Source of the DNA: Candidatus Levyibacteriota bacterium
GTDB lineage: Bacteria; Patescibacteriota; Microgenomatia; Levybacterales; UBA12049
NCBI GenBank assembly: GCA_016199085.1
Contig: JACQHJ010000009.1
Coordinates: 41,667 to 105,666, forward strand
DNA: 64,000 nt
Direction: 5' to 3'
This document shows, in pieces, positions 1,862 to 58,407 of this stretch; positions within the stretch are counted from its first letter, which is position 1, and each line of letters opens with the position of its first letter. The notes under the pieces are model-generated. The model did no database searches, was not told the DNA's origin, and saw only the letters and a program-made list of their open reading frames with translations. Both the position numbers and the translations under genes were made by a program.

Positions 1862-1882
1862 TTTTAACCTATGTATTATACC

Positions 1883-3843: not shown

Positions 3844-3845
3844 GT

Positions 3846-41583: not shown

Positions 41584-42312
41584 ATGAGTCATGATCTGGG
41601 TATGCCCGGGAATTACGAGTATTTATCTCTTAATAAAGGAATTTCTATACAACGACAATGGAATAAAAATAGACTCCTATTATTAAAAAAAATAAATTTC
41701 ATAACAAAAAATGATATTGTGCTTGATGCCGGATGCGGGTCAGGTAATGTTGTTTTGGAATTTTCAAAATTAGCAAAAAGAATTGACGGATGGGATATTA
41801 ATAAAAACTCAATTTCCTTTTTAAGGAAAAAAATAAAAGAGAACCAAATAAGAAACGCAAATACTGCCGTTAGAAATTTGCTTAAAGTGAAGGGGAAACC
41901 CCATTTTTCAAAAATCATTTTAACCGAAGTTATCGAACATTTTTCACATGAAGATTACAAAAAAATGCTATTAAATCTTAGGTATCTTCTTTTACCAAAA
42001 GGAAGAATTTTTATAACAACTCCAAATGATAAAAGTATTTGGCCAATTCTTGAATTTATGTTAAATATTTTCCAAAAAAACATACAAAGAGTACCAACTT
42101 TGGATGATAGACATCTGGGACACTTCGATAAAAAAACGCTCGAGACTATAGTTGAAGAGGCTGGTTTTAAAATCATACATTCTGGGACCATGAATTCTTT
42201 CTCTCCTTTTTTATTTTTTCTTTCGGAAAAGAAACGAGACAAAATTAGCTACTGGGAAAGCAAAAGCATTAAATTCGGCCCGCTTTTGTTTCTGATCGCG
42301 GAGAAAAAATGA
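41584..42312 (+). CDS. Class I SAM-dependent methyltransferase
   Basis: 242 aa; VLDAGCGSGNVVLEF (motif I) ... ILTEVIEHF (motif II region). Confidence 0.75.
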   Translation: MSHDLGMPGNYEYLSLNKGISIQRQWNKNRLLLLKKINFITKNDIVLDAGCGSGNVVLEFSKLAKRIDGWDINKNSISFLRKKIKENQIRNANTAVRNLLKVKGKPHFSKIILTEVIEHFSHEDYKKMLLNLRYLLLPKGRIFITTPNDKSIWPILEFMLNIFQKNIQRVPTLDDRHLGHFDKKTLETIVEEAGFKIIHSGTMNSFSPFLFFLSEKKRDKISYWESKSIKFGPLLFLIAEKK

Positions 42313-44151
42313 ATTTTGTAACATATTTTCTATCCCAGCTTTTATTAAAAAGTAAAAGTGAATAAGGACGAATATATTCATAAATCGCGGGTCAAAAAGG
42401 GTCATCCCTCGTGGGTCTATAGACGTAAAGATCCAAAGCCCCTTCAATAATAAAGCAAGCGTTGAGATATAACAGTAAAATCTCGCCTTTGAATTCTCTC
42501 TTGTCTCGACCCATAACAAAAGAATTATTGGGAGAGAATAATATAATCTATAGGTGAATGAAGACTGAGGGATAAGATTAATAACGGCATCTGCCAGAAT
42601 AAAAAGTAAAATAACCAAAGCTTTATTTAACCTCCAATAGTTCAAGTTATTAATTATGTCGGTTAATACTTTACGATTTTTTTTCCTAATCTTATTTAAT
42701 GTATCTATAATAAAATCTTTGGTTTTGCGAAAAATACTTATAAAAGGAATAATAAATACCAAGATAAACATTGCCTTAGAGATGGCTGAAATAATAACAA
42801 CATCTCTATATACCACCCTATCATCCAAAACTGCGCATGTATGTTTATATACACAGCTTGTTAATAAACTTGCAGTTGCTTCAAATGAGTGGTTTATACT
42901 TAAATATCTAGGTTCATTAAACAAATTTGCTGCAAATTTCGCCCACATTTGAGTTTGATTGATCGTATCAGCAATTGTAATATTTAATCCAAAAAGGTGA
43001 GGAGAATAGTTAAATCCTAAAAAAGATACAACAAAAGAAACAAATGTCAAAAGAGCATATTCTGAACTAAATATAGCAATTAAGGCAAAAGGGGCCAAGA
43101 ATAGTTTAGCATTTACTAAAAACCCCATCATAAAACCTATTAGTATTGTATAGGTGAATAAAGCAAGGGAAGGACGTGTTGTTTTTCTACGTGAAACTAT
43201 CATTAATAATAAGAATCCAACCAAAAGAGAAAAGATAATGTCCATATTAACTCTTTCCAGTCCAAAACTTCCCGGAATCCCAAGTAAAAAAATAATAAAT
43301 ACCATGAGCAAAATACTTTTTACGCGTTCTTTTTTTTTATAAGCTAAAAGAAATATAAAAATAATGTATCCGGCTATTGTTGTAACAATTAACATTTGAG
43401 AAATAAGTTGCTCACAAGAAATTAAAGGCGTAGTTTGTGATAGCGAGCATATTCCAAGCTGGGGAGCAAAAATAAGAAATGGGGAAAAGAAAAAATATAT
43501 TGCTGGACCATAACTTATTTGAAGATCAAAATAAGGATTTAGTCCATGAATCATGTATTCGGTTGGAAAAAATACAGGTACCAAGAAATCCTGGCCAACG
43601 CGTACATGGAAAAATTTTTCAGGCAGAATTAAAGCACCCCCAGGATCTGAGTAAGTGATTGAAAATCTTGTAAGAACTACTATAAGCAATAGAACTATAA
43701 ATATAAATATTTGATCTTTGTTTATAAAACTCACTGATTTGTTCCACAAACTAATAAGCCTTTTATGTATTAAGCTTCTGTATACAGTTATTGACACTTT
43801 TACTAATTTGGTATCATAGACAAACAGAATTAATTTTTTGAAAGATTCAGTAAACAATTTAATGACGATTAAAATTTTTTTAAATCCTTGCTTGTTAACT
43901 AATTTTTGAGGAAAATCATTAATCGTTAAGCTCCTTAAACCACCACTCTTTATCTTTTTATATATAAAAAATACAGTTCTATATATTCTAGGAAAAGTTT
44001 TTATTAAAAATAATGATGATGTAAGGATCAGAAGAAGTATAAATGAAATAATCATCATAATTCCCAAAAGAAATAAATTCGGGTTATAAATACCATTATC
44101 GTAAAAGTTTTTTACCAATTGAGGAATATTAGCTAAAGATAAATACAACAT
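42211..44151 (-). CDS. Polytopic membrane protein, paralog A (GT-C-like candidate)
   Basis: 646 aa; many TM helices; C-terminal 90 aa align to paralog B (FTYRLYYSLPIILLLWVETRENSKARFYCY / FNYRLYYSLPIVLILLTETQNQTKAKFYCY); its 3' end overlaps the convergent methyltransferase gene by 102 nt. Confidence 0.5.
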   Translation of the reverse strand: MLYLSLANIPQLVKNFYDNGIYNPNLFLLGIMMIISFILLLILTSSLFLIKTFPRIYRTVFFIYKKIKSGGLRSLTINDFPQKLVNKQGFKKILIVIKLFTESFKKLILFVYDTKLVKVSITVYRSLIHKRLISLWNKSVSFINKDQIFIFIVLLLIVVLTRFSITYSDPGGALILPEKFFHVRVGQDFLVPVFFPTEYMIHGLNPYFDLQISYGPAIYFFFSPFLIFAPQLGICSLSQTTPLISCEQLISQMLIVTTIAGYIIFIFLLAYKKKERVKSILLMVFIIFLLGIPGSFGLERVNMDIIFSLLVGFLLLMIVSRRKTTRPSLALFTYTILIGFMMGFLVNAKLFLAPFALIAIFSSEYALLTFVSFVVSFLGFNYSPHLFGLNITIADTINQTQMWAKFAANLFNEPRYLSINHSFEATASLLTSCVYKHTCAVLDDRVVYRDVVIISAISKAMFILVFIIPFISIFRKTKDFIIDTLNKIRKKNRKVLTDIINNLNYWRLNKALVILLFILADAVINLIPQSSFTYRLYYSLPIILLLWVETRENSKARFYCYISTLALLLKGLWIFTSIDPRGMTLFDPRFMNIFVLIHFYFLIKAGIENMLQNSFFLRDQKQKRAEFNAFAFPVANFVSFLFRKKK

Positions 44152-44198: not shown

Positions 44199-45584
44199 TC
44201 AAGAATTTTGTACACGATATTTAACAATGGAGCTTGAGGTATGACTTCTCAAAAGCAGGTAACTTGACTTAATTAAAAAAATAAAATGAAAGATTATAAA
44301 AATGTTCATTAGGCGTGCATCTATTATCCCTTTTATAGAAGGGGACAAGTTAACTATCCATAATCCACCTAAAACAAGAAAAATCATGGAAAGATAGCAA
44401 TAAAACTTTGCCTTAGTTTGATTTTGAGTCTCTGTTAATAAAATCAAGACAATAGGGAGAGAGTAATATAATCGATAGTTAAAAGCGATTTCTGGAACAA
44501 GATTTATAAAAGCAGTTATAAAAGTTAATAAAAAAATCAAAGAATATTTGTTTGTTTTTAATTTCAATAAATATCGCTTATAAAGAATAGGGCTTTTTAA
44601 TAGACTTATGAGTTTGACTAAATTCTTTTTTTTAAAAAAATTTCTAGAAAAGAATGCAATAACAAAAGTTAGTAAAACTATAATTAAAGTTAATAAATTA
44701 TTTGGGTATGCTTCACAATTTTGAGTTTTAAGACAATCTGTAAAATAAGACGCAAGAGCAGCGGGAGAATGGTTGTATGCTGGGCTAAAATTAACAGTAA
44801 CTCTTTCATTCCATAAATAAACCCTGTTTAGAAAAGTTAAAATACCAGTAGGTGACCCGAATATATTTGGTAAATACGTAATAATTATAAAAGATCCCAA
44901 AAAAGAAAAAAATTTAAAAATAATATTTTTTGAGAATAAAATAAAAACTACAGAAAAAGGGAAAAGAAAGATTTTGGCATTGGTAATCGCACCTAATAAA
45001 ATTCCCATAAAAATAGAATAAAGTTTTCCATATTTATCCAATAATTTTTTTTCATTAAATTTAAGCAGAATTATAAAACCTAAAGCCAAAGAAAGGAAAA
45101 TGTCAACATTACCCATATAAAAACCAAGGATTCCGGGTATTGAAAAAAAGAAAGTCAAAATAAAAAGTAAGGCGATTTTTTTTATTTCGGAAGACTGCTT
45201 TTTAAATAATATTTTGAAAAAAAATAAATATGACAAAAATAGAGGAAGCAGAAGTATTGAGTAAATAGTAATATTATTCCCCAGCTTTAAAAGAAGGAAC
45301 GGAGATATAATTAGGGGGAATAAATGGCCACATGCAGAGTTAACCCAACCTAATTGGTTCATTACCTCTCCTCTAACCATAAACATACTTCTTACATATA
45401 CGCATGTGTTAAAATCATTAGCAAAAACAAGGCCTAAGTTTTTAGGTACGGAAACTGACTGAGGAGAAAAAATAGATGAAACAAACGGATTTGAAATTAG
45501 AGTAAGCAAAAACAAAGCCAAAATAATTATGAAAGTCCTATGTTTAATCGCAAATATTGTTTTTTTTATTAAACTGTTATACAT
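44199..45584 (-). CDS. Polytopic membrane protein, paralog B
   Basis: 461 aa; shares the C-terminal module and the VNMDIIFSLLVGF / GNVDIFLSLALGF segment with 42211..44151. Confidence 0.5.
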   Translation of the reverse strand: MYNSLIKKTIFAIKHRTFIIILALFLLTLISNPFVSSIFSPQSVSVPKNLGLVFANDFNTCVYVRSMFMVRGEVMNQLGWVNSACGHLFPLIISPFLLLKLGNNITIYSILLLPLFLSYLFFFKILFKKQSSEIKKIALLFILTFFFSIPGILGFYMGNVDIFLSLALGFIILLKFNEKKLLDKYGKLYSIFMGILLGAITNAKIFLFPFSVVFILFSKNIIFKFFSFLGSFIIITYLPNIFGSPTGILTFLNRVYLWNERVTVNFSPAYNHSPAALASYFTDCLKTQNCEAYPNNLLTLIIVLLTFVIAFFSRNFFKKKNLVKLISLLKSPILYKRYLLKLKTNKYSLIFLLTFITAFINLVPEIAFNYRLYYSLPIVLILLTETQNQTKAKFYCYLSMIFLVLGGLWIVNLSPSIKGIIDARLMNIFIIFHFIFLIKSSYLLLRSHTSSSIVKYRVQNS

Positions 45585-45860: not shown

Positions 45861-46787
45861 ATGAAACAGTCAATGTATAGATGGTATTTCTTATTTTTTT
45901 CCTTCTCTATTATACTGATTTTTATTTCACTTATGTCTTTCGGCACTTTATTACATTCCAAGGATTTAAGATTAAACAATTGGGAAACAGAATCAAATCT
46001 ACCGGTAATTGGCATTAATGAGCAATATGACTTTGTTCTCTTAGGATCATCTCATGCAAGAACCTTGTCTAGATCAAACAACCATCTAAGGGTGGAAAAA
46101 ATTCTTGGGAAAAAATTTCTGAATCTTTCCCAAGGCGGAGATAAAACAGGAGCCGTATTGGATCAGCAAACATATTTAAATTATTTTTATCAGCGTGGAA
46201 ACTCTGCAAAAATGTTGGTATATTTTGTTGACCCCTACATATTTTTTAATAAAAGCTTGGACTATAATGCAGACCCTTATTTAAATGAGCCATTTAGATT
46301 AGACTTTCTTTCTAGACTGTTAATTGATAGACCCAAAAATCCTCAAGCGTTAGAAAAATACATAAAGAAAATATTTGAGACTCGAACAATAGCTCACTAC
46401 CCTGTATTTGAAAAACCTTTAGAGAGTACGATCGTAGCATCAATCTCTGCCGTTGACGCAAAAAACAGATTTAATACCTTATATAAATCTTCATATAATA
46501 AGAACTATTTTAACAACGTTTTGACTGCTTTAATACAAACATTAAATATTGGTAATAAACATAACGCAAAAATTATTATGATTGTTCCACCTACGCTTCT
46601 TCCTGAAAACGAGAATGATCATTATGCATATGAGTCTCTAAATTATGAAAGCAAGAGGATGGGCTTTGAATATTATAACTATTCTAAAGCAATTCGTGAA
46701 AAGAATTTATATTACAACATTGATCATCTCAATACCGAAGGGGTAATTTTTTTTACAGAAACACTCTTAAAGCCAATACTTAGGTGA
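45861..46787 (+). CDS. Membrane-anchored hypothetical protein (possible SGNH/AlgJ-like fold)
   Basis: 308 aa; N-terminal TM (WYFLFFSFSIILIFISLMSF) then a soluble domain with DFVLLGSSHA; only weak resemblance to SGNH hydrolases. Confidence 0.35.
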   Translation: MKQSMYRWYFLFFSFSIILIFISLMSFGTLLHSKDLRLNNWETESNLPVIGINEQYDFVLLGSSHARTLSRSNNHLRVEKILGKKFLNLSQGGDKTGAVLDQQTYLNYFYQRGNSAKMLVYFVDPYIFFNKSLDYNADPYLNEPFRLDFLSRLLIDRPKNPQALEKYIKKIFETRTIAHYPVFEKPLESTIVASISAVDAKNRFNTLYKSSYNKNYFNNVLTALIQTLNIGNKHNAKIIMIVPPTLLPENENDHYAYESLNYESKRMGFEYYNYSKAIREKNLYYNIDHLNTEGVIFFTETLLKPILR

Positions 46788-48212: not shown

Positions 48213-49013
48213 CTATTTTATCCTTTTCCTCAACATCTCTATTCTATTATCATCTTCGATATTGATAGCGGAATAATAATTTTTTTTATTTTGGAGCCAA
48301 AGCAGTTCAAACATATTAGCTTTAATAATTCCTCTCTCTACCTTTTTGAAATTACTAGGCACGTTGAATACTATTTTTCTGGTCTCAAAACGGTCTAGAA
48401 GTTTTTTAGATACAAGTTTTTTAATAAATGGAATTGCTTCAACCGCAATACCCCCACCCATAGTAGTCCTTAAACCCTTTTTCTTTGCCAAAGTAAACAT
48501 TGACTGTGCAATTTCATACAATTGGTCACAATTAATGTCATCCCTCCCCAGTCCCAACGATCCTGACATATCTACTCTTCCCAACGTAACAGTATCAATG
48601 AGGCGTATCAACTTAACGCTTAATATTTCTTTGAGATTTTGAAATCCTTGGTATGTTTCAATATTTACTCCAAAATGTATTTCTTTTTTTAAATCCTCCG
48701 GAAAATGTTTTTTAATTGCCTCCAAATATTTTGTCATTGCATATGGACTTTCAATCATAGGAGCAATAAGACCCGTCACCCCAATATGCTGTGCCTCAAA
48801 CATATCTGTTATTGCTTCTGCGCCACCTATTTTTATGACTAATCCTAATCCTGCTCGGTCTGCAACTTCTTTTAAGCGCATCAACTCATTCATCCTTACC
48901 GCTTCGGTTTCAAACTCAGCTTTTAATTCCACTACTTTATGGTTTTCTCTGAGGTCAATAAGAAGTTTTACCATTTTATTTTCTAACGTATTCACAGTTT
49001 TATTATACACCAA
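48213..49013 (-). CDS. HpcH/HpaI aldolase / citrate lyase beta (CitE)-like TIM-barrel protein
   Basis: 266 aa; GLIAPMIESPYAM resembles the G-x-x-x-P-K-[IV]-E-S loop of the CitE/HpcH family and ...NIETYQGFQNLKEIL the following I-E-T-x-x-G motif; the catalytic Lys position is Met, so assignment is tentative. Confidence 0.4.
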   Translation of the reverse strand: MVYNKTVNTLENKMVKLLIDLRENHKVVELKAEFETEAVRMNELMRLKEVADRAGLGLVIKIGGAEAITDMFEAQHIGVTGLIAPMIESPYAMTKYLEAIKKHFPEDLKKEIHFGVNIETYQGFQNLKEILSVKLIRLIDTVTLGRVDMSGSLGLGRDDINCDQLYEIAQSMFTLAKKKGLRTTMGGGIAVEAIPFIKKLVSKKLLDRFETRKIVFNVPSNFKKVERGIIKANMFELLWLQNKKNYYSAINIEDDNRIEMLRKRIK

Positions 49014-50085
49014 TTATTTTTCTCAACTCTACCAAACTCGACTCGTATTCGTCAATACCTAGATTATTAATCTTAATAAGTGAAAAGTTTTTTTGCGGAA
49101 GGACGAGCACTAAGTCATTACCAATCCTTTTTTTATCTTTTTTCATATTTTCTAATATTAAGTCTTTGTCAAAATATCTTTTTTTAATATTGACTACATC
49201 TCTGGGAATATTGGGAACTAGCAAATGTTTATTTAAATCATCAAAAACTTTTTTATCAATTAATCCTCTTTTAAGAGAAACTACGTTTGCAAATATAATA
49301 CCAATTAAAATAGCCACTCCATGGGGAATCCTAAATGATGATGCAGGCTCAAGCGCATGTCCAAATTCATGTCCATAATTTAAAAGATTTCTTCTTCCCG
49401 TGTCAAACTCGTCTCCTTCCATATAGCTTAGTTTGATCTTCATGCCTTCTTCAATTATATTAAGTATTTCCTGTCTATTTTTATTGTTTTTTAACTTTTC
49501 TATTTTTTTTAATGTATTATCCAAATCCGAAATGGCATTTCCCTTCATTAAGTAAAATTTAATAATTTCTCCTACTCCACTGAAATAGTTTAATTTAGGA
49601 AGTGTTTTTAAAAAATCCACATTAATAATAATTTTTGATGGGGGATAGAAAGTACCTAATACGTTTTTATATGATTTGAAATTAAGAGAAGTCTTAAGAC
49701 CTATTGCGCTATCTGCCATCGCCAATAACGTGGTTGGGACATAAATCCAATTAATCCCTCTATATAAAGTAGAGGAAACAAATCCAACAACATCTTGGCT
49801 TATTCCTCCCCCAAAAGAAATAATAGTCAAATTTTTTTTTGCCGTTTGCTCTAGCAGTTTTTCATATACCTTCATTACTGTTTTTATAGTTTTGTTTTGT
49901 TCACCCAGCTTTACAATTATTAACTTATCTTTAGGAAATTTATTAAAAATACTTTTTTTGTAAAAAGCGTATACATTTGATCCTACAATAACGATATAGT
50001 GTTCTATCTGGAGAAATTCGTTTATAAAATTAAAATCTTTTGCAAATATAACTTCAAAATCCTTAATTTTTGACTTAATCTTCAT
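49003..50085 (-). CDS. 3-dehydroquinate synthase-like sugar-phosphate cyclase (DHQS / DOIS / sedoheptulose-7-P cyclase family)
   Basis: 360 aa; GGGISQDVVGFVSSTLYRGINWIYVPTTLLAMADSAIGLKT and HEFGHALE match the DHQS nucleotide-binding and metal-binding motifs. Confidence 0.75.
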   Translation of the reverse strand: MKIKSKIKDFEVIFAKDFNFINEFLQIEHYIVIVGSNVYAFYKKSIFNKFPKDKLIIVKLGEQNKTIKTVMKVYEKLLEQTAKKNLTIISFGGGISQDVVGFVSSTLYRGINWIYVPTTLLAMADSAIGLKTSLNFKSYKNVLGTFYPPSKIIINVDFLKTLPKLNYFSGVGEIIKFYLMKGNAISDLDNTLKKIEKLKNNKNRQEILNIIEEGMKIKLSYMEGDEFDTGRRNLLNYGHEFGHALEPASSFRIPHGVAILIGIIFANVVSLKRGLIDKKVFDDLNKHLLVPNIPRDVVNIKKRYFDKDLILENMKKDKKRIGNDLVLVLPQKNFSLIKINNLGIDEYESSLVELRKIIGV

Positions 50086-50087
50086 AT

Positions 50088-50753
50088 TTATTTACAAATA
50101 AAGCCTCCGTCAATTACGATGTTTGCTCCCGTAATATAGGTATTCTCTTCGGCAATGAGAAAAGCCACTAGATTTGCAATCTCCTCTGGCTCTGCTAGTC
50201 TTCCCATGGGAATATCTGAGGCTATGGCTGCTATTTTTTCAGGAGGATTTACTTTAATCAAATCTGTGTTCGTAAACCCAGGAGAAACAGAATTTACAAG
50301 AATATTATAGGGAGCAAGTTCTAGGGCCAAAGATTGAGTTACTCCGTTTATGCCATGTTTTGTTGCGGAATATAAAACTTGTTTTCCACGGGCAATCACC
50401 CCAAAAATAGAACTTATATTAACGATCCTTCCCCATTTATCCTTTTTCATGCTTCCAACAAATCCTCTAATTAATTTTATTGGGGCGATAAGATTTACTT
50501 GAATAGTCTCATTTATATTTTCATCAGACAGTTCATCAATCCACTGAGGATGGTTTATTCCCGCATTGTTAATAATAATATTAATTTTTTCTTTTTTGTA
50601 CTTTTTAATAAAATTATCAATAGAGTTGTCGTTTGATAAGTTAAGTTCTTCCCTATCTGGAGAAATAATTTTATATTTTTTTTCCAGCTTATTTTTAATT
50701 GCTTTTCCGATTCCCCTTGAAGAACCTGTTAACAAAATAATCTTTTTCATCAT
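50088..50753 (-). CDS. Short-chain dehydrogenase/reductase (SDR)
   Basis: 221 aa; TGSSRGIGKAI (TGxxxGIG), NNAG, and YSATKHGINGV (YxxxK). Confidence 0.8.
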   Translation of the reverse strand: MMKKIILLTGSSRGIGKAIKNKLEKKYKIISPDREELNLSNDNSIDNFIKKYKKEKINIIINNAGINHPQWIDELSDENINETIQVNLIAPIKLIRGFVGSMKKDKWGRIVNISSIFGVIARGKQVLYSATKHGINGVTQSLALELAPYNILVNSVSPGFTNTDLIKVNPPEKIAAIASDIPMGRLAEPEEIANLVAFLIAEENTYITGANIVIDGGFICK

Positions 50754-51620
50754 TTAAGCAATAAGCACCCCCCAATCAGCGCAAAATTTTTCCACCCCTT
50801 TTTTTGTCAACTCATTTTCCAAACGCGTCTTTCTCCAATCTTTAGGAAAATTAAGTAAGTCAATGAAGGGAATAGTTTCTAGCTCAGTTTTATAAATATA
50901 TGAGCTACCTGGAATAGGACACCCCTTTTCTGCCCACTCTGATAAAACTGAAAAAGGCGCTGTTATAATATCGCATTCAAGACTTAAAGAAGACAAAAAA
51001 TGAGGCAAATTGCGTACACTTGCCGCTAAAACCTCTACGTGGTTATTTTTATCTTTTCTATAGCTTTTTAAAATATTTGAAATTAGGCTTATTCCATTTT
51101 GCCCAACATCATCAAGTCTTCCAATAAAGGGCGATATTAAAACTGCTCCCTTACTTGCGCCCTTCGTTGCAAGAAACACGGCGGCTGCCTGCTCTTGAGT
51201 AAAACATAAAGTCATATTTATCCTCATTCCATCTTGCGCCGCTTGATGCGCTGCCACAAGACCTTCTTTTATAATTGGGAGTTTTATATGAGCATTTGGA
51301 ATCCAAGAAAACATTTCTTCTGCTTCTTTAAGCATTTGGGAAGATGTTGTTTCAAAATCTGCGTATACCTCAACTGACACGGAGCCTTGGGGAATAAGTT
51401 TTGAGATTTCTTGAATTACATCTTTGTAAAATGCATATATTTCTTTTTTTGTGAATTTCTTCCCTTTCTTAATCATCTCAACGGCTTTAGGATTTTTGGC
51501 TATTAGAGTTGGATTAGTTGTTTGTCCGTCTAGAAATCCAAGTATTTTAATTATTTTTTTAGTTTCAATAGGATCACCGCTATCGAGAAAGATTTTAGTT
51601 TTTAAATCTTTTGGTCTCAT
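50754..51620 (-). CDS. Transaldolase / fructose-6-phosphate aldolase family (short FSA/TalC type)
   Basis: 288 aa; IFLDSGDPIETKKI...GQTTNPTLIAK and catalytic-Lys segment HIKLPIIKEGL. Confidence 0.75.
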   Translation of the reverse strand: MRPKDLKTKIFLDSGDPIETKKIIKILGFLDGQTTNPTLIAKNPKAVEMIKKGKKFTKKEIYAFYKDVIQEISKLIPQGSVSVEVYADFETTSSQMLKEAEEMFSWIPNAHIKLPIIKEGLVAAHQAAQDGMRINMTLCFTQEQAAAVFLATKGASKGAVLISPFIGRLDDVGQNGISLISNILKSYRKDKNNHVEVLAASVRNLPHFLSSLSLECDIITAPFSVLSEWAEKGCPIPGSSYIYKTELETIPFIDLLNFPKDWRKTRLENELTKKGVEKFCADWGVLIA

Positions 51621-51628
51621 TATATAAA

Positions 51629-52486
51629 TTATTTTTTTATTTGTTTTTTATTTTTGGTATACCAATCATATACTTTTTTAATTGCTTCATCAATATTTGT
51701 AAATGATAGGTTTTTGATTTCTTTAAGTAGTCTTGAATTATCGCATGTATATTCATTGCCTAATCCCTTATTTTTAATAATTATTTTAGATTTATCTCTT
51801 GCAATTCTGTTAATTTTTTTAGCAAGTTTAGCTATATTGATAGGTTTTCCTGTTCCGATATTGTAGAATTTGTATTCTCCGTCATTCTCAATAAAATATT
51901 CTACAATTTTTAAAAAATCTTCAATATAAAGATAATCAAAATAAACATCCTTATTAATCGTTATCGGTAATCCAAAGATATTTCTACAGATTGCATTGGA
52001 AATAAACCTGTACCTATAATCCTCATATTTTCCAAATAACCCAAATATTCTTAAGCTAACTATTCCCTCCGTATTCTCTATATATTTTGAACAAAGATAT
52101 TTGTAGTACCCGTAATCATCTACAGGGACCCTTTTATCAAAATCTTCTTCTTTTATCTTTCTTATTGGAAACCTTTTATCATATTCCGCACCAGATCCTA
52201 AATGTATCATTTTTTTAAAATATTTCTTATTTCTTACGATATTAAAAAACATTCGTAAGCTCTCATAAAACATCTTGTTCTCCTGCTCTTCCTGACGACT
52301 ACCACCTACCACAGCAGCATGAATAACTACATCAATATTTTTTTTCCTAAAAAAATTTTCTACTGCAATTTCATCGAGAAGATCTAGCTCTTTATGTTTA
52401 GGGATATAAAGTCTATATTTTGTCTCCAATCGTTCTTTTAAATTCCTTCCAATATAACCACTTGCACCTGTAATTAAAATGTTCAT
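51629..52486 (-). CDS. NAD(P)-dependent epimerase/reductase (extended SDR, dTDP-4-dehydrorhamnose reductase / GDP-fucose synthase-like)
   Basis: 285 aa; ILITGASGYIGRNL Rossmann motif, YGYYKYLCSK (YxxxK). Confidence 0.7.
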   Translation of the reverse strand: MNILITGASGYIGRNLKERLETKYRLYIPKHKELDLLDEIAVENFFRKKNIDVVIHAAVVGGSRQEEQENKMFYESLRMFFNIVRNKKYFKKMIHLGSGAEYDKRFPIRKIKEEDFDKRVPVDDYGYYKYLCSKYIENTEGIVSLRIFGLFGKYEDYRYRFISNAICRNIFGLPITINKDVYFDYLYIEDFLKIVEYFIENDGEYKFYNIGTGKPINIAKLAKKINRIARDKSKIIIKNKGLGNEYTCDNSRLLKEIKNLSFTNIDEAIKKVYDWYTKNKKQIKK

Positions 52487-52487
52487 T

Positions 52488-54317
52488 TTATGTATTCTCC
52501 CAGGTAGGAATTATCATATTTGCTTTAAATTCATCTCGTGGCAAAAATGGTCCCATATCTTCTAGTGGAGGAGACTCGAATTGACCGTCTGGGGTTCTTC
52601 TTGCCATAAGTTTTGGAGTAAGCATTAGCTCTCGTACTGAATTAATGTCACATACAATGGGACCTGGTTCATTTAAAACTCTTTTTATTTTTTCTTTCAT
52701 ATCGACATGACTATTAATTCTTATTGCCTTAAATCCATAAGCCTTGGCAACTTTTACGAAATCTGGGGAGCTCACTCCAGATTTTGAATTTACCGCAACG
52801 TGCTTTCCCGCAAATAGATTATTCTGCGTATTTTTAATAGAAAGGTATCCGTCGTTGCTATAAATAAAAAGTTTAATTGGAAGGTTATGGTGTTTCATAA
52901 CCTGAAGCTCATGGATATTAAGCTGTAAGCTTCCATCTCCTTCAAAACAAATTACCCTCTTCTTCTTATTCGCAGCAAAAGCAACGCCAATTGCCGCAGG
53001 TAATCCATACCCCATTTGTGCGCAACCATTATTTAAAATGACTCGCTGGTTTGGTTTTACATAAAAAGCTTGATACATACAGTTAAGAGCACCTACCCCA
53101 TCTGAAACAACAATAAGTTCGTTCTTTTTTAAAAGCTTTCCAATTACCTCGATGAAATAATATGGATTCACGTATCGCTTTTTCCTCTTATACTCTGGCA
53201 GCACGACTGGATATTTCTTATTGAGCCTGACTCCGTATGCTAACCAATCTTTTATATTGAGAGCTAGAGGCTTTTTTTTAAGCTGTCTTGTCATTTCTGT
53301 GATAAAGTCTTTTGCGTCAAAGTTAACTCTGAGATCCGGCGAGAGTATAAATTTATTCAATTCCTCCTTATCTATATCTACCATTACTTTATACGCTTTT
53401 CTTGCAAATGCCTTATAGGTAAATCCAATTGTTCGGATGTCAAGGCGCGCTCCAATCGAAAGGAAAAAATCGCTATTTTGAAGAACAAAGTTTGCAGCTC
53501 TTTGGCCAAACGCATGTCCTCGTCCAAAAAAATAGCGATGAGAAGAGGGGATTAGGTCATATCCAGCATAACTCGTAAGTACTGGAATTTTGAGAAGGTC
53601 AACAAGCTTAAGAAACTCTTTTGCTGCTTGAGCAAGTCGTATACCATTTCCTGCGTAAAGGACAGGTCTTTTTGAATTTCTCAAATTTTCAAGGACCTTA
53701 CTCACTTGTTTTTCTAAAAGCTTTTTTTCTGTCTCGTGTGAAAAACCTATTTCATTTGGATTAAATTGCTTAAGTTCTTTTAAATTAATAAAAGACCCTT
53801 GAACATCTAACGGAATATCTATCCATACAGGCCCTGGTCTTCCAGTTTTTGCAAGATATACTGCTTTTTCAAGATGATAACGAATTTCACTTGGATCCAT
53901 TACGGTAACTGCGTATTTGGTTATTGGCTTAACTATATCTACAATATTTATCTCCTGATCTCCAAGCTGCCTCACTCCTTTACTTGCACCTAGAAGCTCT
54001 CGCTTTACCTGTCCTGAAATAACTAGCATGGGAATAGAATCCAACCAAGCGCCAAGCATTCCAGTAATTGCATTTGTGCCACCTGGACCAGTTGTTACAA
54101 CACAAACCCCAATATTTCCTGAGATTCTTGCATAGGCCTCCGCTGCTGTTGCGCATGCTTGTTCATGATAATTGCAGACATATTTTATTTTCCTACTTTT
54201 CCCAATCGAATCAATAAGATGAATATTTCCACCACCTGAAATCAAAAATATATGTTTTACTCCAAGATTTTCAACAAATCGAACAATATAATCTGAGATT
54301 TTTATTTTACTTTCCAT
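52488..54317 (-). CDS. Thiamine-pyrophosphate-dependent enzyme of the acetolactate synthase family (YerE-like candidate for C2 branch addition to an NDP-ketosugar)
   Basis: 609 aa; N-terminal Pyr domain (...VVTTGPGGTNAITGMLGAWLDSIPMLVISGQV), C-terminal TPP motif GDGSLQLNIHELQ...SNDGY (GDG-x24-NN-like). Confidence 0.75.
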   Translation of the reverse strand: MESKIKISDYIVRFVENLGVKHIFLISGGGNIHLIDSIGKSRKIKYVCNYHEQACATAAEAYARISGNIGVCVVTTGPGGTNAITGMLGAWLDSIPMLVISGQVKRELLGASKGVRQLGDQEINIVDIVKPITKYAVTVMDPSEIRYHLEKAVYLAKTGRPGPVWIDIPLDVQGSFINLKELKQFNPNEIGFSHETEKKLLEKQVSKVLENLRNSKRPVLYAGNGIRLAQAAKEFLKLVDLLKIPVLTSYAGYDLIPSSHRYFFGRGHAFGQRAANFVLQNSDFFLSIGARLDIRTIGFTYKAFARKAYKVMVDIDKEELNKFILSPDLRVNFDAKDFITEMTRQLKKKPLALNIKDWLAYGVRLNKKYPVVLPEYKRKKRYVNPYYFIEVIGKLLKKNELIVVSDGVGALNCMYQAFYVKPNQRVILNNGCAQMGYGLPAAIGVAFAANKKKRVICFEGDGSLQLNIHELQVMKHHNLPIKLFIYSNDGYLSIKNTQNNLFAGKHVAVNSKSGVSSPDFVKVAKAYGFKAIRINSHVDMKEKIKRVLNEPGPIVCDINSVRELMLTPKLMARRTPDGQFESPPLEDMGPFLPRDEFKANMIIPTWENT

Positions 54318-54332
54318 ATTTTATATATTCAA

Positions 54333-55286
54333 TCATACTACCGACTTATACCATTTTAAAACATCTTCTAAAGAGCTATCTAAATCATATTTATTTCCCC
54401 ATCCCATTTTTTTTATTTTTCTATCATTTAAATGCTGATATGGTATTTCGTTTTTTGCACTATTAAGGATTTTGAAATCTATTTTTGTATTTAAAATCTT
54501 TTCACATTTTTTTAATAGTTGCAAAACGGAGAGAGTATCATTTGAAGAGAAATTATAAGCTTCTCCTACTGTTTTTTTAATATTTTTAAGAAGAAAAATA
54601 TATCCCTCAACTACATCCTTCACATATAAATAGTCTCTCACATAGGTTCCATCACTTCTTAGAAGTAAGGTTTTTTTATTTATAACCGCATCACAAATAT
54701 CCGGTATTATTCTTCCTAAATGAAAATCTCCTTCTCCATATACGTTTCCAAACCGTGTAATAACTACAGGAAGACTAAAAGATTTGTAATAAGTATAAGA
54801 TATTAAATCTGCGGCTGATTTTGAAACGTCATAAGGATGGTCACCTCTTAGGGGAGACGTTTCATCGTAAGCCTTAGTGGTTTTTCCGTAAGCTTTGTCA
54901 CTAGATGCAACAATTACTCCCTTAATATTTTTTATCTGTCTTGCAGCATCGAGAACGTTTACCGTACCCATAATATTTGTTTCAAAAGTAGCATGTGGAT
55001 TTAGAAACGCATTATCTACAATAGGCTCTGCCGCAAGATGAAAAACAAAACTGGGATTATAAAAATTAAATACATCAAATAGTAAATCTCTTTTCCTAAT
55101 ATCAACAAGTCTAAGGATTGTCTTTGAATTTAAACCTTGGCTTGCATAAATAGAATTCCTATTAACTTCTATGTCTAGGACTATCACATTTTTTGCACCC
55201 AGATCAAGCAAGCCCTTAACCAAATTACTTCCGATAAAGCCTGCCCCTCCTGTTACTATAATTACCTCTTTATCTAATCCTTCCAT
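54333..55286 (-). CDS. rfbG: CDP-glucose 4,6-dehydratase-like (RfbG/DdhB)
   Basis: ORF 54333..55313; TNIMGTVNVLDAARQIKNIKGVIVASSDKAYGK and GDHPYDVSKSAADLI align to RfbG TNVMGTVHLLETVKQVGNIKAVVNITSDKCYDN / GYDPYSNSKGCAELV; VTGGAGFIGSNL Rossmann motif; start probably the internal Met at 55286. Confidence 0.7.
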   Translation of the reverse strand: MEGLDKEVIIVTGGAGFIGSNLVKGLLDLGAKNVIVLDIEVNRNSIYASQGLNSKTILRLVDIRKRDLLFDVFNFYNPSFVFHLAAEPIVDNAFLNPHATFETNIMGTVNVLDAARQIKNIKGVIVASSDKAYGKTTKAYDETSPLRGDHPYDVSKSAADLISYTYYKSFSLPVVITRFGNVYGEGDFHLGRIIPDICDAVINKKTLLLRSDGTYVRDYLYVKDVVEGYIFLLKNIKKTVGEAYNFSSNDTLSVLQLLKKCEKILNTKIDFKILNSAKNEIPYQHLNDRKIKKMGWGNKYDLDSSLEDVLKWYKSVV

Positions 55287-56059
55287 ACTTTCCACCTTGG
55301 ATCCTCTTTCCAAATTTTGTTCAAATCACTGACATCGGCATAAGTATCCATACAGTGCCAAAAACCATCATGAGAATAAACCGATAATTGCTTTTTAGAA
55401 ACCAGCCTTTTTAAAGCCTCATGCTCAAATTCTGCAGGATTTATATATTTAAAAAACTCTCTTTTAAAAACCATAAATCCCCCATTAGTTCTTTCTTTTA
55501 AAATAGGTTTTTCTATGAAGCTTTCCGCAATGAGTTTTTGGTTGATTTTTAAAAGTCCGTATTTACTTCGGGGATGGACTCCGGTGATCGTTCCTATTGT
55601 CCCTTGTCTTTTATGAAAGTTTACAAGCTTACTAATATCAATGTCTGCAACACCATCTCCATAAGTTACCATAAAATATTTATCTGTTTTTGGAATAAAG
55701 TTTTTAACCCTCAAGATCCTTTCGCCGGGTAGAGTTTCTTCTCCTGTATCTACAAATGTAATTTTAAAATTATCATTTTTATTTTCATTCTTTTTGCCTT
55801 TATGAATTAACGTTTTACCTGTTTTTGTAGAAATGGAGAAATTATTTGAGTAGTGTTTTTGGTTTAAAAAATATTGTTTTATCTGATCACCTTTGTAACC
55901 AAGAGCAATAATGAAGTCATTAAATCCGTAATGTGCATATATTTTCATTATATGCCACAATATTGGCATGTCTCCAATTTGAACCATGGGCTTTGGTTTA
56001 AACTCCGTTTCTTCTTTAAGCCTATAACCTAAACCTCCACATAGAATAATTGTCTTCAT
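55274..56059 (-). CDS. rfbF: Glucose-1-phosphate cytidylyltransferase (RfbF/DdhA)
   Basis: 261 aa; [57 protein letters not shown] is nearly collinear with Salmonella RfbF [57 protein letters not shown]; also [10 protein letters not shown] and GFWHCMDT (RfbF YGDGVADLDI / GFWQPMDT). Confidence 0.85.
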   Translation of the reverse strand: [261 protein letters not shown]

Positions 56060-57093
56060 AGGTATTTACTAAATTTTAACTTTAGCACGGCAAAACTAGT
56101 AAATCTGACGTAGTATATCAAAAATAGCAAACACATAAAAGGATGGAGAAACCATGCAGCGTCTCTTACTTTTAAAAATCCTCTTATGCTTAAAAATAAA
56201 GGCTGGATAAATGTAACTGTATAAAAAATATATTTTGATAAATTCACTATGTCTTTTGGGGAATTAAAATCAAAAACTGCGTATCTTCTATGATCTAAGT
56301 ACTTTGACAATGAATATCTCTTAACATATAAAACTCTTCTTCTAACAAGATCAAAAATTCCATTTCCTATATCATGCTCAATACTTGTCGTTTTTACTAC
56401 AGCAAATCTTTTGAAACCTAATTTTAATAGATCTACATAAATATCTATATGCACATAAGCTTCGGGAGAAATATCTGCCTTTAGCAAAATCTTTCTTCTT
56501 GTCAAAAATCCATTATCTCCTACTGTTGGAAGATTATTTTTATTGAATTCAACTACATCGTAGTTTTTCTCCCTTTTAATTATTTTCCCTTTTAAGTACT
56601 TATCTGTTAACCAGGTTTCCCTATCTGCTTTATTTAGATATAGGGCAACAGGATCGCTAATCCCAAAACAAGCACAATATCTATCAAGCAGCTTCATGTT
56701 TTTATTTATCCCGTAATGCAGAGTAAAGGTTGAGATTATTTTTCTATCGTCAATGAAAGGTTGAATTAACTGCCGTAAAGAATTTTTATCCGATAAGACA
56801 TTATCTGACTCAAGCCAAAGAACAATGTCGTTTTTTGCCTTTTTTACGGCAAATACTCTTCTTACCTCACTTTGGTCTCTCAAGTTTTTTTTAACTATCA
56901 ACTTGCATCCATAATTTTTTAAGTAATTAATTTTGTTTTTTTCTGAACCCCCATCGACTATAATGTGCTCAATCAACTGTTTTGGATAATCTTGATTTTT
57001 AATTGATTCTAAAACTTTCCTGAAAACTTTGGGATTGGGATTTAGAGTAATAGTTAAAATTGATATGCTGGGAAGTGAAAAGCTCTTCTTCAT
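56056..57093 (-). CDS. Glycosyltransferase family 2
   Basis: 345 aa; ISILTITLNPN...HIIVDGGSEK...LWLESDNVL (GT2 DGGS/DXD-type motifs). Confidence 0.7.
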   Translation of the reverse strand: MKKSFSLPSISILTITLNPNPKVFRKVLESIKNQDYPKQLIEHIIVDGGSEKNKINYLKNYGCKLIVKKNLRDQSEVRRVFAVKKAKNDIVLWLESDNVLSDKNSLRQLIQPFIDDRKIISTFTLHYGINKNMKLLDRYCACFGISDPVALYLNKADRETWLTDKYLKGKIIKREKNYDVVEFNKNNLPTVGDNGFLTRRKILLKADISPEAYVHIDIYVDLLKLGFKRFAVVKTTSIEHDIGNGIFDLVRRRVLYVKRYSLSKYLDHRRYAVFDFNSPKDIVNLSKYIFYTVTFIQPLFLSIRGFLKVRDAAWFLHPFMCLLFLIYYVRFTSFAVLKLKFSKYL

Positions 57094-57207
57094 TGTATTG
57101 AATTAGGAATTGTCGTATTATAGCATCTAAAGATATCCAAATAAAATAAAAGAAAGATTGTTATTGTCAAGAAATTTTATTTAATGTAAAATCATTTTGT
57201 AAATAAG

Positions 57208-58407
57208 ATGAAAGGATTAAGAGTTTCATACGCACAAGCCGTCCACGATGACGCTGAGACAAAAAAAATTCTTTCTGTACTAAAGGAACATAGAACCATA
57301 ATCGGAAAAGAAACAGAAGAGTTCGAGAAAAGAGTCGCAACGCATTTTGGAAAAAAATATGCAGTTATGGTAAATTCCGGCTCTTCTGCAAATTTAATTG
57401 CCGTCAGATTATTAAATTTACCTGCCCATTCAGAAGTGATTACACCGCTACTTACTTTTTCAACTACTATTGCTCCCCTTTTACAAAATGGCCTTGTCCC
57501 CGTCTTTGCCGATGTAGAAGAGGGAAAATACATAATTAATTTAGACGAAATAGAAAAACTTATTTCAAAAAAAACAAAAGCCCTTATGATTCCTCTTCTA
57601 ATAGGAAACGTTCCAGATATGAAAAGACTTAGACGGATTGCCGATAAGCATAAATTGTTTATTATTGAAGACTCATGCGATACCCTGGGAGCAACCTTTG
57701 ATGGAAAACCAACCGGCTACTATACAGATATTTCGACAACAAGCTTTTATGGATCACACATTATAACAGCAGGGGGCGGGGGAGGCATGGTAATGGTAAA
57801 CAGCACTAGCTGGAGAGATAAGGCAAAGGTTTTGCGAGGATGGGGAAGAAGTTCTTCTATTTTTAGCGAGTCTGAAAGTATAGATAAAAGGTTTAAGGCA
57901 AAAATAGGAAATATTCAATACGATGCAAAGTTTATTTTTGATGAAATAGCCTATAATTTCATGCCGATGGAAATTGGTTCTGCTTTTGGCAATGCACAAC
58001 TTGATAAATTACCCAAATTTAAGGCAACGAGGGAGAAGAATTTTAAGCATCTTTATGAATTTTTCAAAAAGTACGAAAGGTTTTTTATTCTCCCTAACCA
58101 GGATAAAAAAGTAAGAACTCAATGGCTGGCCTTTCCCCTAACAATTAAGGAAAACAGTCCTTTTACAAGACTTGAATTAGTAAAATATTTGGAACTAAAC
58201 AATATACAAACTCGCCCAATATTTACGGGCAACATTTTGATGCAACCCGGATTTAAAAACATCCCTCATAGAAAAAATGGTAAATATACTTATACAAATC
58301 AAGTAATGAAGCAAAGTCTTCTAATTGGATGTCATCATGGATTAAAAAAGGAACATCTAGATAAACTAAAAAATGTTTTTAGTAAATTATTAAATAAATA
58401 TTCTTAA
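57208..58407 (+). CDS. DegT/DnrJ/EryC1-family PLP/PMP enzyme of the 3-dehydrase type (RfbH/E1- and ColD-like): His replaces the Schiff-base Lys, no Fe-S cysteine motif
   Basis: 399 aa; VMVNSGSSANLIAVRLL, NGLVPVFADVEEGKYIIN, RLRRIADKHKLFIIEDSCDTLGATFDGK, TTSFYGSHIITAGGGGG and TRPIFTGNILMQPGF align to Salmonella RfbH and E. coli ColD; codon 184 is CAC (His, nt 57757-57759) where aminotransferases have Lys; the E1 CYCAPGCDNTC [2Fe-2S] motif is absent (only 2 Cys in the protein). Confidence 0.75.
   Translation: MKGLRVSYAQAVHDDAETKKILSVLKEHRTIIGKETEEFEKRVATHFGKKYAVMVNSGSSANLIAVRLLNLPAHSEVITPLLTFSTTIAPLLQNGLVPVFADVEEGKYIINLDEIEKLISKKTKALMIPLLIGNVPDMKRLRRIADKHKLFIIEDSCDTLGATFDGKPTGYYTDISTTSFYGSHIITAGGGGGMVMVNSTSWRDKAKVLRGWGRSSSIFSESESIDKRFKAKIGNIQYDAKFIFDEIAYNFMPMEIGSAFGNAQLDKLPKFKATREKNFKHLYEFFKKYERFFILPNQDKKVRTQWLAFPLTIKENSPFTRLELVKYLELNNIQTRPIFTGNILMQPGFKNIPHRKNGKYTYTNQVMKQSLLIGCHHGLKKEHLDKLKNVFSKLLNKYS

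Follow-up and report, generated by a model that had tools for sequence, protein, structure and literature searches.

How could a bacterium remove the C-3 hydroxyl of a CDP-activated hexose with an enzyme of the E1 lineage that lacks the cysteines of the E1 iron-sulphur cluster, and which sugar would such an enzyme serve? The question is raised by a locus in a 64-kb stretch of DNA (64,000 nucleotides, hereafter the window) from a Candidatus Levybacteria host (Patescibacteria, candidate-phyla-radiation). For C-3 deoxygenation of sugars there is a radical route, which depends on an Fe-S enzyme (E1) and its reductase (E3), and a hydrolytic, glutamate-driven route, used by ColD. The locus consists of a nine-gene operon on the minus strand, running from 57093 down to 48213 with gene ends that overlap or nearly abut in the list of open reading frames (ORFs), and of a DegT-family gene on the plus strand (57208-58407), transcribed away from the operon across a spacer of 114 bp. 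From the sequence we consider it fairly probable that the operon and the divergent gene together make a CDP-activated, C-4-branched 3,6-dideoxyhexose for a surface glycan. The initial annotation of this DNA gave correct coordinates for all its ORFs and confined the unit to 52488-58407. That unit is too narrow: the operon reaches down to 48213 and includes four further genes, for a family 2 glycosyltransferase (GT2), a transaldolase-family protein, a protein like 3-dehydroquinate (DHQ) synthase (DHQS) and an HpcH/HpaI-family protein. The features are the following:

56056-57093, minus strand: GT2-family glycosyltransferase, first gene of the operon (Pfam Glycos_transf_2, 51 bits)
55274-56059, minus strand: RfbF-like glucose-1-phosphate cytidylyltransferase (TIGR02623, 266 bits)
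54333-55313, minus strand: RfbG-like nucleoside diphosphate (NDP)-glucose 4,6-dehydratase-type short-chain dehydrogenase/reductase (SDR); the start is more likely the ATG at 55286
52488-54317, minus strand: YerE/JanthE-like carboligase dependent on thiamine diphosphate (ThDP), 609 aa, with three TPP domains
51629-52486, minus strand: extended SDR (RmlD-like), putative reductase (Pfam Epimerase, 93 bits; RmlD_sub_bind, 42 bits)
50754-51620, minus strand: transaldolase/FSA-family protein (Pfam TAL_FSA, 168 bits)
50088-50753, minus strand: classical SDR (FabG-like), 221 aa (Pfam adh_short_C2, 150 bits)
49003-50085, minus strand: DHQS-like (AroB-related) protein (TIGR04425, 378 bits)
48213-49013, minus strand: HpcH/HpaI (aldolase/citrate-lyase) family protein, last gene of the operon (Pfam PF03328, 37 bits)
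57094-57207, no strand: divergent intergenic region of 114 bp between the GT2-led operon and the dehydratase gene
57208-58407, plus strand: predicted Fe-S-free, E1-like 3-dehydratase (DegT family), 399 aa (Pfam DegT, 261 bits)

Judging by the gene layout, the intergenic region 57094-57207 is a probable bidirectional promoter region, and the divergent GT2/DegT arrangement is repeated in sibling Levybacteria loci (L004/L005). A scan of the region for promoters and terminators returned promoter-like hexamers on both strands, in counts no higher than chance. The operon lies in the low-GC part of the window (GC about 0.30-0.35). Two minus-strand ORFs antisense inside the dehydratase gene, 57192-57533 (113 aa) and 57754-57999 (81 aa), are almost certainly spurious.

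The DegT-family dehydratase and the E1 cluster ligands

The best match of the dehydratase in the Protein Data Bank (PDB) is Yersinia E1 (3bcx), with 266 bits and 37.6% identity over 372 aa; the match to ColD is weaker (167 bits, 30.9% identity), and the score with the RfbH model NF011936, 354.7 bits, is below the cut-off of 423. The catalytic position was set by alignment with wild-type E1 plus its H220K mutant. His184 of the dehydratase (CAC, 57757-57759) aligns with His220 of E1 (SFYGSHIIT versus SFYPAHHIT), in agreement with the initial annotation, which had placed a histidine at the position of the lysine that binds pyridoxal 5′-phosphate (PLP). The annotation was also right that the [2Fe-2S] cysteine cluster is missing. 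In the 3bcx alignment the cluster ligands of E1 are C193, C251, C253 and C261, reportedly forming the motif C-X57-C-X1-C-X7-C. The whole dehydratase has two cysteines, C157 and C375; the first is the retained equivalent of C193, the equivalents of C251, C253 and C261 are absent, and the cluster loop of E1, RDCYCAPGCDNTCKKRF, is replaced by RSSSIFSESESIDKRF. With three of four ligands gone and two cysteines in total, the protein is unable to bind the four-Cys [2Fe-2S] cluster of E1. The E1-type 'WGR...RF' loop is retained.

These features are not peculiar to the window. A protein identical to the dehydratase is recorded from a Candidatus Levybacteria metagenome-assembled genome (MAG), and all 120 closest homologues (66-100% identity, mostly from Patescibacteria) have the catalytic His and no loop Cys. 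Among the 150 best clusters at 50% identity, the His is invariant in all 146 aligned representatives; 89 of the 150 representatives are without loop Cys, 55 carry three or more (the E1 type, 'DWGRDCWC...C') and a few carry the 'HGW' loop of ColD. The Cys-free type is the norm in Levybacteria. A sequencing artefact at His184, which the initial annotation had named as one way in which its proposal could fail, is ruled out by the His in these 120 homologues and 146 representatives. An ordinary aminotransferase, which it had named together with the artefact, is ruled out too, since the true aminotransferases of sibling loci retain the Lys (SFYPSKNLGA) and the relatives of the dehydratase have His throughout.

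A neighbour-joining tree of 119 full-length cluster representatives, rooted on ColD and without support values, places the dehydratase inside a clade of 45 clusters, all members of which are Cys-free. The sister of this clade is the Fe-S clade holding Yersinia E1, and ColD-like sequences branch outside the E1 plus Cys-free group. Ten fusion proteins were checked, in which a Cys-free dehydratase is joined to 4,6-dehydratase/SDR, RmlC, RmlD-like or intein domains; the C-terminal region of one of them, P0148, is unassigned, and none of the ten has a reductase partner. Being fused to deoxysugar enzymes and not to reductases, the Cys-free members belong in NDP-deoxyhexose pathways. As a separate observation, an intein (Hint/Intein_splicing) interrupts some E1-like homologues shortly before the catalytic His region, as in P0127 (669 aa); similar two-stretch matches are given by P0146, P0198 and P0212.

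The initial annotation called the combination found here not typical. This holds among characterised enzymes, since the nucleotide-sugar 3-dehydratase types in a 2022 review are E1, ColD and SpnQ only (PMC8987622); it does not hold in sequence space, where those 89 of the 150 best clusters are Cys-free. No description of a Cys-free CDP-sugar 3-dehydratase was found in the literature searched, though a prior description is possible. In public annotation such proteins are named 'CDP-6-deoxy-D-xylo-4-hexulose-3-dehydrase', 'E1' or 'aminotransferase' and the types are not told apart, so that names such as 'E1/RfbH' or 'aminotransferase' hide the difference between Fe-S and Cys-free proteins.

Would the enzyme have a reductase at its disposal? 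The plant-ferredoxin Cys motif was found by regular expression in no ORF of at least 80 aa in the window, and none of its 51 main ORFs (about 200 aa or longer) matched the Pfam families Fer2, FAD_binding_6 or NAD_binding_1; hence no E3 of the AscD/DdhD/RfbI type is present in the 64 kb. The earlier statement that no E3 gene is nearby is thus correct, even over this larger distance, and is weak as evidence, because sibling loci with an Fe-S-type E1 are also without an E3-like ORF. As an absent E3 says little, the argument for Fe-S-free chemistry rests on the missing cysteines.

A stronger indication of function comes from the company that the two dehydratase types keep. The loci compared were 31 recovered with the ThDP enzyme and three with the aldolase. 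The orthologous ThDP cassette adjoins a canonical Fe-S E1, 51% identical to Yersinia E1, in L008, L011, L013, L018, L019, L021, L022 and L039, and it adjoins a Cys-free dehydratase in the window and in L014; the dehydratase of L035, a distantly related ThDP locus from SAR86, is of the Cys-free type too. The two types thus look interchangeable in one pathway context, and the best available argument that both would deliver the same product, CDP-4-keto-3,6-dideoxyglucose, is that each replaces the other. In sibling Levybacteria loci the Cys-free dehydratase is accompanied by RfbF, a 4,6-dehydratase and a reductase, sometimes also by an RmlC-like epimerase, with no E3 within 10 kb; by its predicted functions this is a complete simple 3,6-dideoxyhexose set.

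The same evidence bears on a rival explanation, in which the Cys-free protein is not the 3-dehydratase (it could be, for example, a 4-aminotransferase or an epimerase-like enzyme, with C-3 deoxygenation occurring elsewhere or not at all) or needs an unlinked redox partner. The invariant Lys-to-His change that defines the dehydratases, present in the 146 representatives and the 120 homologues, speaks against it, as do the Lys of the sibling-locus aminotransferases, its standing where orthologous cassettes have a canonical Fe-S E1 and the fusions to deoxysugar enzymes in other lineages; a redox partner would moreover meet a protein whose two cysteines cannot form a four-Cys cluster. What the explanation has in its favour is the divergent position of the gene, the score under the RfbH cut-off, the fact that no member of the Cys-free clade is among the characterised types of the 2022 review, and the behaviour of SpnQ, which shows that E1 relatives can transaminate in some conditions (PMC8987622). 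Taken together, we regard it as improbable.

Our results support, without proving, a dehydratase that performs ColD-like, glutamate-driven 3-deoxygenation of a CDP-hexose. In the proposed mechanism, the His184 protein would form a Schiff base between pyridoxamine 5′-phosphate (PMP) and the sugar, from which the C-3 hydroxyl would be expelled as in E1 and ColD. No electrons would come from an E3-type reductase, since there are no cysteines to hold a [2Fe-2S] cluster. The product would instead be freed by hydrolysis of the enamine and PMP restored from an amino donor such as glutamate; this finish of the ColD type is inferred because it is the only known route without a redox centre.

With E1 (RfbH/DdhC/AscC of Yersinia and Salmonella) the dehydratase shares the DegT fold family, as its closest solved relative, the His in place of the PLP Lys, the CDP-glucose context provided by RfbF and RfbG, and the cassette position that a genuine Fe-S E1 takes in sibling genomes. 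It differs from E1 in lacking the equivalents of C251, C253 and C261, an E3 in 64 kb, the N-terminal extension and the insertion before 'GDEVIT', in scoring below the RfbH cut-off and in belonging to a separate sister clade. With ColD, the GDP-4-keto-6-deoxy-D-mannose 3-dehydratase of colitose synthesis, it has in common the His, the absence of an Fe-S cluster and, by prediction, the hydrolysis of the enamine and the regeneration of PMP by glutamate. It shares only 30.9% identity with ColD, however, proteins with the 'HGW' loop lie outside the E1 plus Cys-free group, and ColD acts on a GDP-mannose-derived sugar beside GMD and ColC, whereas the context in the window is CDP-glucose. By its sequence the protein is set apart from E1 by cluster motif, E3 partner and model cut-off and from ColD by sequence and context, yet it probably works like ColD.

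A large cluster-free clade of E1 lineage that swaps with Fe-S E1 offers an experimental handle on evolution between the two mechanisms and, if the mechanism proposed here is true, an oxygen-tolerant, reductase-free enzymatic access to CDP-3,6-dideoxy sugars. It is not a major surprise, given that Cys-free relatives of E1 are abundant and ColD provides a precedent; it is still a clean, testable case.

CDP-sugar genes and the ThDP-dependent carboligase

Which sugar would the dehydratase act upon? The cytidylyltransferase matches the full profile of TIGR02623 with its 266 bits (cut-off 300; next family 82 bits), and its best PDB match is the glucose-1-phosphate cytidylyltransferase 1tzf (194 bits; next match 65 bits). 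The RfbF call of the initial annotation (55274-56059) is therefore supported end to end. Its RfbG-like call (54333-55286, or 55313 with the longer start) also holds at the level of an NDP-hexose 4,6-dehydratase-type SDR: the protein scores 198 bits with TIGR02622, the CDP-glucose type (cut-off 278), and 172 bits with the dTDP-type model, and in the PDB it matches the dTDP type with 137 bits and the CDP type with 121 bits. Its active-site stretch reads SSDKAYG (STDEVYG in the dTDP enzyme), together with YDVSK. By family membership, RfbF would convert CTP and glucose-1-phosphate into CDP-glucose, and the RfbG-like SDR would turn this into CDP-4-keto-6-deoxyglucose, the presumed substrate of the dehydratase.

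The 609-aa enzyme of 52488-54317, described in the initial annotation as an acetolactate synthase (ALS)-family ThDP enzyme related to YerE, proved to be just that. It has the Pfam domains TPP_enzyme_N/M/C, and its best PDB match is JanthE (8rph; 455 bits, E 3e-135), aligned over residues 2-602 including the C-terminal extension; structures of acetohydroxyacid synthase (AHAS) and PpYerE follow with 260-267 bits. The ThDP motif is the canonical GDG, and CDG in JanthE. JanthE itself is a YerE-like enzyme from Janthinobacterium that joins 2-oxo acids to ketones (PMC12188165; PMC12247030). Its orthologues accompany RfbF/RfbG/E1 genes in 20 or more related loci, as it does itself in the window. By these matches the enzyme groups with the YerE-like sugar-branching carboligases, and carboligation at C-4 is its predicted reaction.

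The initial annotation had conceded that the enzyme could be the large subunit of a housekeeping acetolactate synthase, which would then sit in a glycan locus by chance. The best NCBIfam model is indeed TIGR00118, the biosynthetic AHAS large subunit; the score of 398 bits is far under the cut-off of 538, and the values for JanthE and for AHAS structures, 455 and 260-267 bits, point the other way, as does the coverage of the JanthE C-terminal extension. Neither a small subunit (ilvN) nor ilvC/ilvD lies near the gene, which is translationally packed in the sugar operon and whose orthologues are consistently linked to RfbF/RfbG/E1. A housekeeping enzyme is scarcely credible on these grounds. The candidate was rejected on the sub-cut-off AHAS score, the JanthE match, the missing ilv partners and the embedding in the operon.

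The JanthE-like clade extends to Lachnospiraceae/Clostridia MAGs (rumen/gut Firmicutes; L024-L034), whose enzymes are 39-44% identical to that of the window. Their neighbours are unrelated to RfbF/RfbG/E1, and the clade therefore has at least one other genomic context.

Both reductase/epimerase genes of the initial annotation are present, an extended SDR at 51629-52486 and a classical SDR at 50088-50753. The first, RmlD-like, shares the locus with the ThDP gene in 16 of 21 related Patescibacteria-type loci and stands directly downstream of it wherever positions were listed; its PDB matches, to dTDP-4-dehydrorhamnose reductases, are weak. It is a candidate for a YerF-type side-chain reductase or a 4-keto reductase. 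A GT2 orthologue adjoins RfbF in L006, L007 and L004/L005, which makes the GT2 of 56056-57093 a candidate transferase for the sugar.

A unifying scheme has been published for acyl-branched sugars: a functionalised 2-oxo acid, formed by an aldolase, is added to CDP-4-keto-3,6-dideoxyglucose by a YerE-like enzyme, after which the branch is completed by a reductase (Steitz et al. 2022, PMC9306805; see also PMC12247030). Aldolase, ThDP enzyme, reductase, deoxy-keto-sugar genes and glycosyltransferase are all found within 48213-58407, and the aldolase of the caryophyllose cluster, MMAR_2331, is of the aldolase/citrate-lyase family (PMC9306805), as is the HpcH protein of the window. The window further shares with the YerE-like systems (YerE, ErwE, MMAR_2332, MyGE, JanthE) an ALS-like ThDP enzyme whose gene neighbours those for CDP-4-keto-3,6-dideoxyglucose, and departs from them in the Fe-S-free dehydratase, the GDG motif (CDG in JanthE) and the Patescibacteria host. 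None of the described branched-sugar clusters compared has the DHQS-like, SDR and transaldolase-like extras of the window. The pathway itself belongs to the known family for acyl-branched 3,6-dideoxyhexoses, and the cluster-free E1-lineage dehydratase, the DHQS-like module and the host are what distinguish it. Following the published scheme, the JanthE/YerE-like enzyme would draw an acyl-anion equivalent from a 2-oxo acid and join it to the ketone at C-4, the RmlD-like SDR would reduce the new side-chain carbonyl, as YerF does in the yersiniose/erwiniose/caryophyllose scheme, and the GT2 would transfer the finished sugar.

The DHQS-like module and the nature of the branch

What would the remaining genes add? 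The DHQS-like protein matches TIGR04425 ('AroB-related putative sugar phosphate phospholyase (cyclizing)') over its full length with 378 bits (cut-off 400) and the aroB model TIGR01357 with 261.6 bits (cut-off 305). Its best PDB matches are true DHQ synthases (1xag, 155 bits) and not sedoheptulose-7-phosphate or glucose-6-phosphate cyclases, and all DHQS motif residues are invariant in an alignment of 11 orthologues and S. aureus DHQS. Mapped to A. nidulans numbering, these residues presumably include those for the metal and NAD and those binding the phosphate and carboxylate of 3-deoxy-D-arabino-heptulosonate 7-phosphate (DAHP). From AroB the protein differs in scoring below both cut-offs, in lying in a glycan operon with no shikimate context, and in being always accompanied by a small SDR and a pyruvate/phosphoenolpyruvate (PEP)-condensing enzyme and linked to a ThDP carboligase. 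No description of a DHQS-like gene in a branched-sugar cluster was found in the literature searched, though a prior description is possible.

The HpcH protein exceeds the PF03328 cut-off (37 bits against 25) and has 4141 homologues, mostly PF03328 members named 'aldolase/citrate lyase family protein'; a PDB sequence search with it gave no match, and its assignment as a candidate pyruvate aldolase comes from Pfam and the annotation of homologues. The transaldolase-family protein scores 123 bits with TIGR00875, below the cut-off of 246. Its motifs (DSGD, SVEV, IKLP, NMTLCF, SPFIGRLDD) are of the Phe type, hence transaldolase-like.

Wherever the DHQS-like gene was detected, in ten loci (L006, L011, L013, L014, L015, L019, L021, L037-L039), the gene for the small SDR is present too, and the HpcH gene is fixed after the DHQS-like gene in L015, L019, L021 and L037-L039. 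The block order ThDP-reductase-SDR-DHQS-like-HpcH(-GT2) is kept in L006, L015, L019, L021 and L037-L039, the last three reading ThDP-Epimerase-SDR-DHQS-HpcH-GT2; its hosts are Roizmanbacteria, Gottesmanbacteria and Levybacteria contigs, and contigs binned as Acidobacteriota or Bacteroidota. The transaldolase-like gene sometimes precedes this block and is linked to the ThDP gene also in L006, L016 and L037. In place of HpcH, L014 has a NeuB-family enzyme with an FGGY kinase and a HAD phosphatase, and L013 a DHDPS-like aldolase-kinase fusion. By family assignment, every variant has a DHQS-like enzyme, a small SDR and a single enzyme for condensing pyruvate or PEP. The ThDP enzymes that go with the module fall into one clade; in the sister clade are loci with the ThDP enzyme, reductase and RfbF/G only, two Levybacteria loci (L016, on a truncated contig, and L020) among them, so that the distribution of the module is not simply taxonomic. 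One locus on a Patescibacteria contig, L019 (5295-9973), has two ThDP sugar-branching systems side by side: the first is a JanthE-like enzyme with the DHQS-like/HpcH module, and in the second an ErwE-like enzyme is preceded by an acetaldehyde dehydrogenase (DmpF/BphJ-type) and a 4-hydroxy-2-oxovalerate aldolase (DmpG/BphI-type), the ErwJ/ErwI/ErwE arrangement of erwiniose.

Since the DHQS-like protein conserves every DHQS motif residue, a DAHP-like substrate is indicated, which the aldolase could plausibly form from erythrose-4-phosphate and pyruvate. The transaldolase-like protein could supply the tetrose phosphate, and perhaps so could a split transketolase encoded at 34570-36320. Two uses of such a compound have to be weighed. 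In the first, the HpcH aldolase, the transaldolase-like protein, the DHQS-like enzyme and the small SDR would assemble or modify a 2-oxo-acid donor, longer and functionalised, for the ThDP enzyme: pyruvate and tetrose phosphate would give a DAHP-like 2-keto-3-deoxy-heptonate-7-phosphate, on which the DHQS-like enzyme and the SDR would then act. This is the least secure step of the scheme. In the second, the locus would make two products. The ThDP enzyme would use plain pyruvate, giving a yersiniose-type branch, and the DAHP-like acid would be closed to a DHQ-like ring and reduced to a dehydroquinate/quinate-like acid that serves as another glycan component or acceptor.

Two separate products agree with the invariance of the catalytic and of the carboxylate- and phosphate-binding DHQS residues in the protein and its orthologues, and with nearest solved relatives that are genuine DHQ synthases. 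The pyruvate/PEP-condensing enzyme that every variant encodes beside the DHQS-like gene (HpcH; NeuB-family in L014; DHDPS-like in L013) would fit an alternative DAHP-type synthase, and there are loci with ThDP enzyme, reductase and RfbF/G alone, for which no special donor is needed. Yet the operon has no ligase or second nucleotidyltransferase for a carbocyclic acid, the module invariably adjoins the ThDP gene and goes with one particular ThDP subclade, for which shared chemistry is the simpler explanation, and in the published clusters for acyl-branched sugars the donor of the ThDP enzyme is a product of the aldolase. We judge two products to be unlikely, if by no means negligible. As the module is strictly linked to the ThDP gene and varies together with the ThDP subclade, synthesis or tailoring of the donor is ranked, with low confidence, slightly ahead of a separate quinate-like product.

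For the proposed branched CDP-3,6-dideoxyhexose this means that the core of the initial annotation survives, with a unit that was drawn too small and a type of branch that has become less certain. The two-carbon, yersiniose-type branch that it predicted is possible; given the extra conserved genes, it is not the sole and perhaps not the best prediction. The conserved module, together with the ThDP enzyme and two reductases, suggests a product more elaborate than a two-carbon yersiniose.

Several points count against the branched 3,6-dideoxyhexose as we propose it: (i) the missing E3 is uninformative, since the Fe-S loci lack it too, and the genome may encode an E3, or some other reductase, beyond the 64-kb window; (ii) the dehydratase gene is on the strand opposite to the operon; (iii) the 4,6-dehydratase is about equally near to dTDP-type and CDP-type enzymes; (iv) the RfbF, RfbG, RfbH, DHQS-like and AHAS models were all matched below their curated cut-offs, so that substrate details could differ; (v) the conserved DHQS residues predict a DHQ-like carbocycle that, being no 2-oxo acid, could not be used directly as a ThDP donor, which speaks against donor synthesis by the module; and (vi) the physiological substrates of JanthE are unknown (PMC12188165).

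A bolder proposal joins the two halves of the locus, and we hold it as tentative, possible rather than probable. The Cys-free clade would constitute a fourth mechanistic class of nucleotide-sugar 3-dehydratase, of E1 lineage and independent of a reductase, which deoxygenates CDP-hexoses in the manner of ColD; it would be a present-day intermediate between E1 and ColD, freely exchangeable with Fe-S E1 in the pathway, and the module would work with the YerE-like enzyme to attach a DAHP-derived unit at C-4. Such a unit might be a carbocycle or an omega-deoxy compound, added for instance through the use by the ThDP enzyme of a ring-derived or ring-opened acyl donor. If this were true, the envelopes of the candidate phyla radiation would contain an unseen higher branched or carbocycle-bearing sugar. 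The host presumably lacks lipopolysaccharide, and the surface chemistry of Patescibacteria is almost unstudied; the cluster points to an unknown complex sugar on these cells, and the ThDP enzyme with its DHQS-like companion module widens the toolbox of carboligases that form tertiary alcohols.

The surrounding glycan island

Beyond dcw-type genes (Mur ligase, PBP, MraW; 527-4730), almost all of the window, from about 8400 to 64000, forms a single island of some 55 kb for glycan biosynthesis, across which GC drops from about 0.40 to about 0.30. It contains DUF4012, a Bac_transf initiating transferase, a mannose-1-phosphate guanylyltransferase-like gene, many GT2/GT4 genes, two PMT_2 (ArnT-like) proteins, several methyltransferases and a flippase. 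Seven large ORFs of the island (308-1151 aa) had no Pfam match at E<=1e-4 and may encode novel membrane or polymerase-type proteins:

17404-20601: Pfam-negative ORF
27716-29731: Pfam-negative ORF
30085-33540: Pfam-negative ORF
36372-38705: Pfam-negative ORF
42211-44151: Pfam-negative ORF
44199-45584: Pfam-negative ORF
45861-46787: Pfam-negative ORF

The split transketolase (34570-36320, minus strand) lies in the island beside a GT2 gene (33540-34586), in two parts:

35490-36320, minus strand: transketolase N-terminal ThDP domain (split gene)
34570-35493, minus strand: transketolase pyrimidine-binding and C-terminal domains (split gene)

Similar split transketolase genes occur in the related loci L016 and L017. 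The pair could supply erythrose-4-phosphate or act as a second sugar-branching enzyme of the transketolase type, as has been proposed for miharamycin/amipurimycin (PMC12247030).

Several of the loci compared (L006, L008, L011, L014, L018, L021, L037, L038) carry genes 60-93% identical to these Patescibacteria genes on MAG contigs labelled 'uncultured Gammaproteobacteria', 'Methanosarcinales archaeon', 'Sulfotelmatobacter' or 'Bacteroidota', so that mis-binning or mislabelling of those contigs is likely. Among the glycosyltransferase genes of the island there is also a gene for a Fic/DOC-domain protein with a C-terminal helix-turn-helix (22282-23256, minus strand), and a gene of the same kind is present in the sibling Levybacteria glycan locus L004 (12086-13066).

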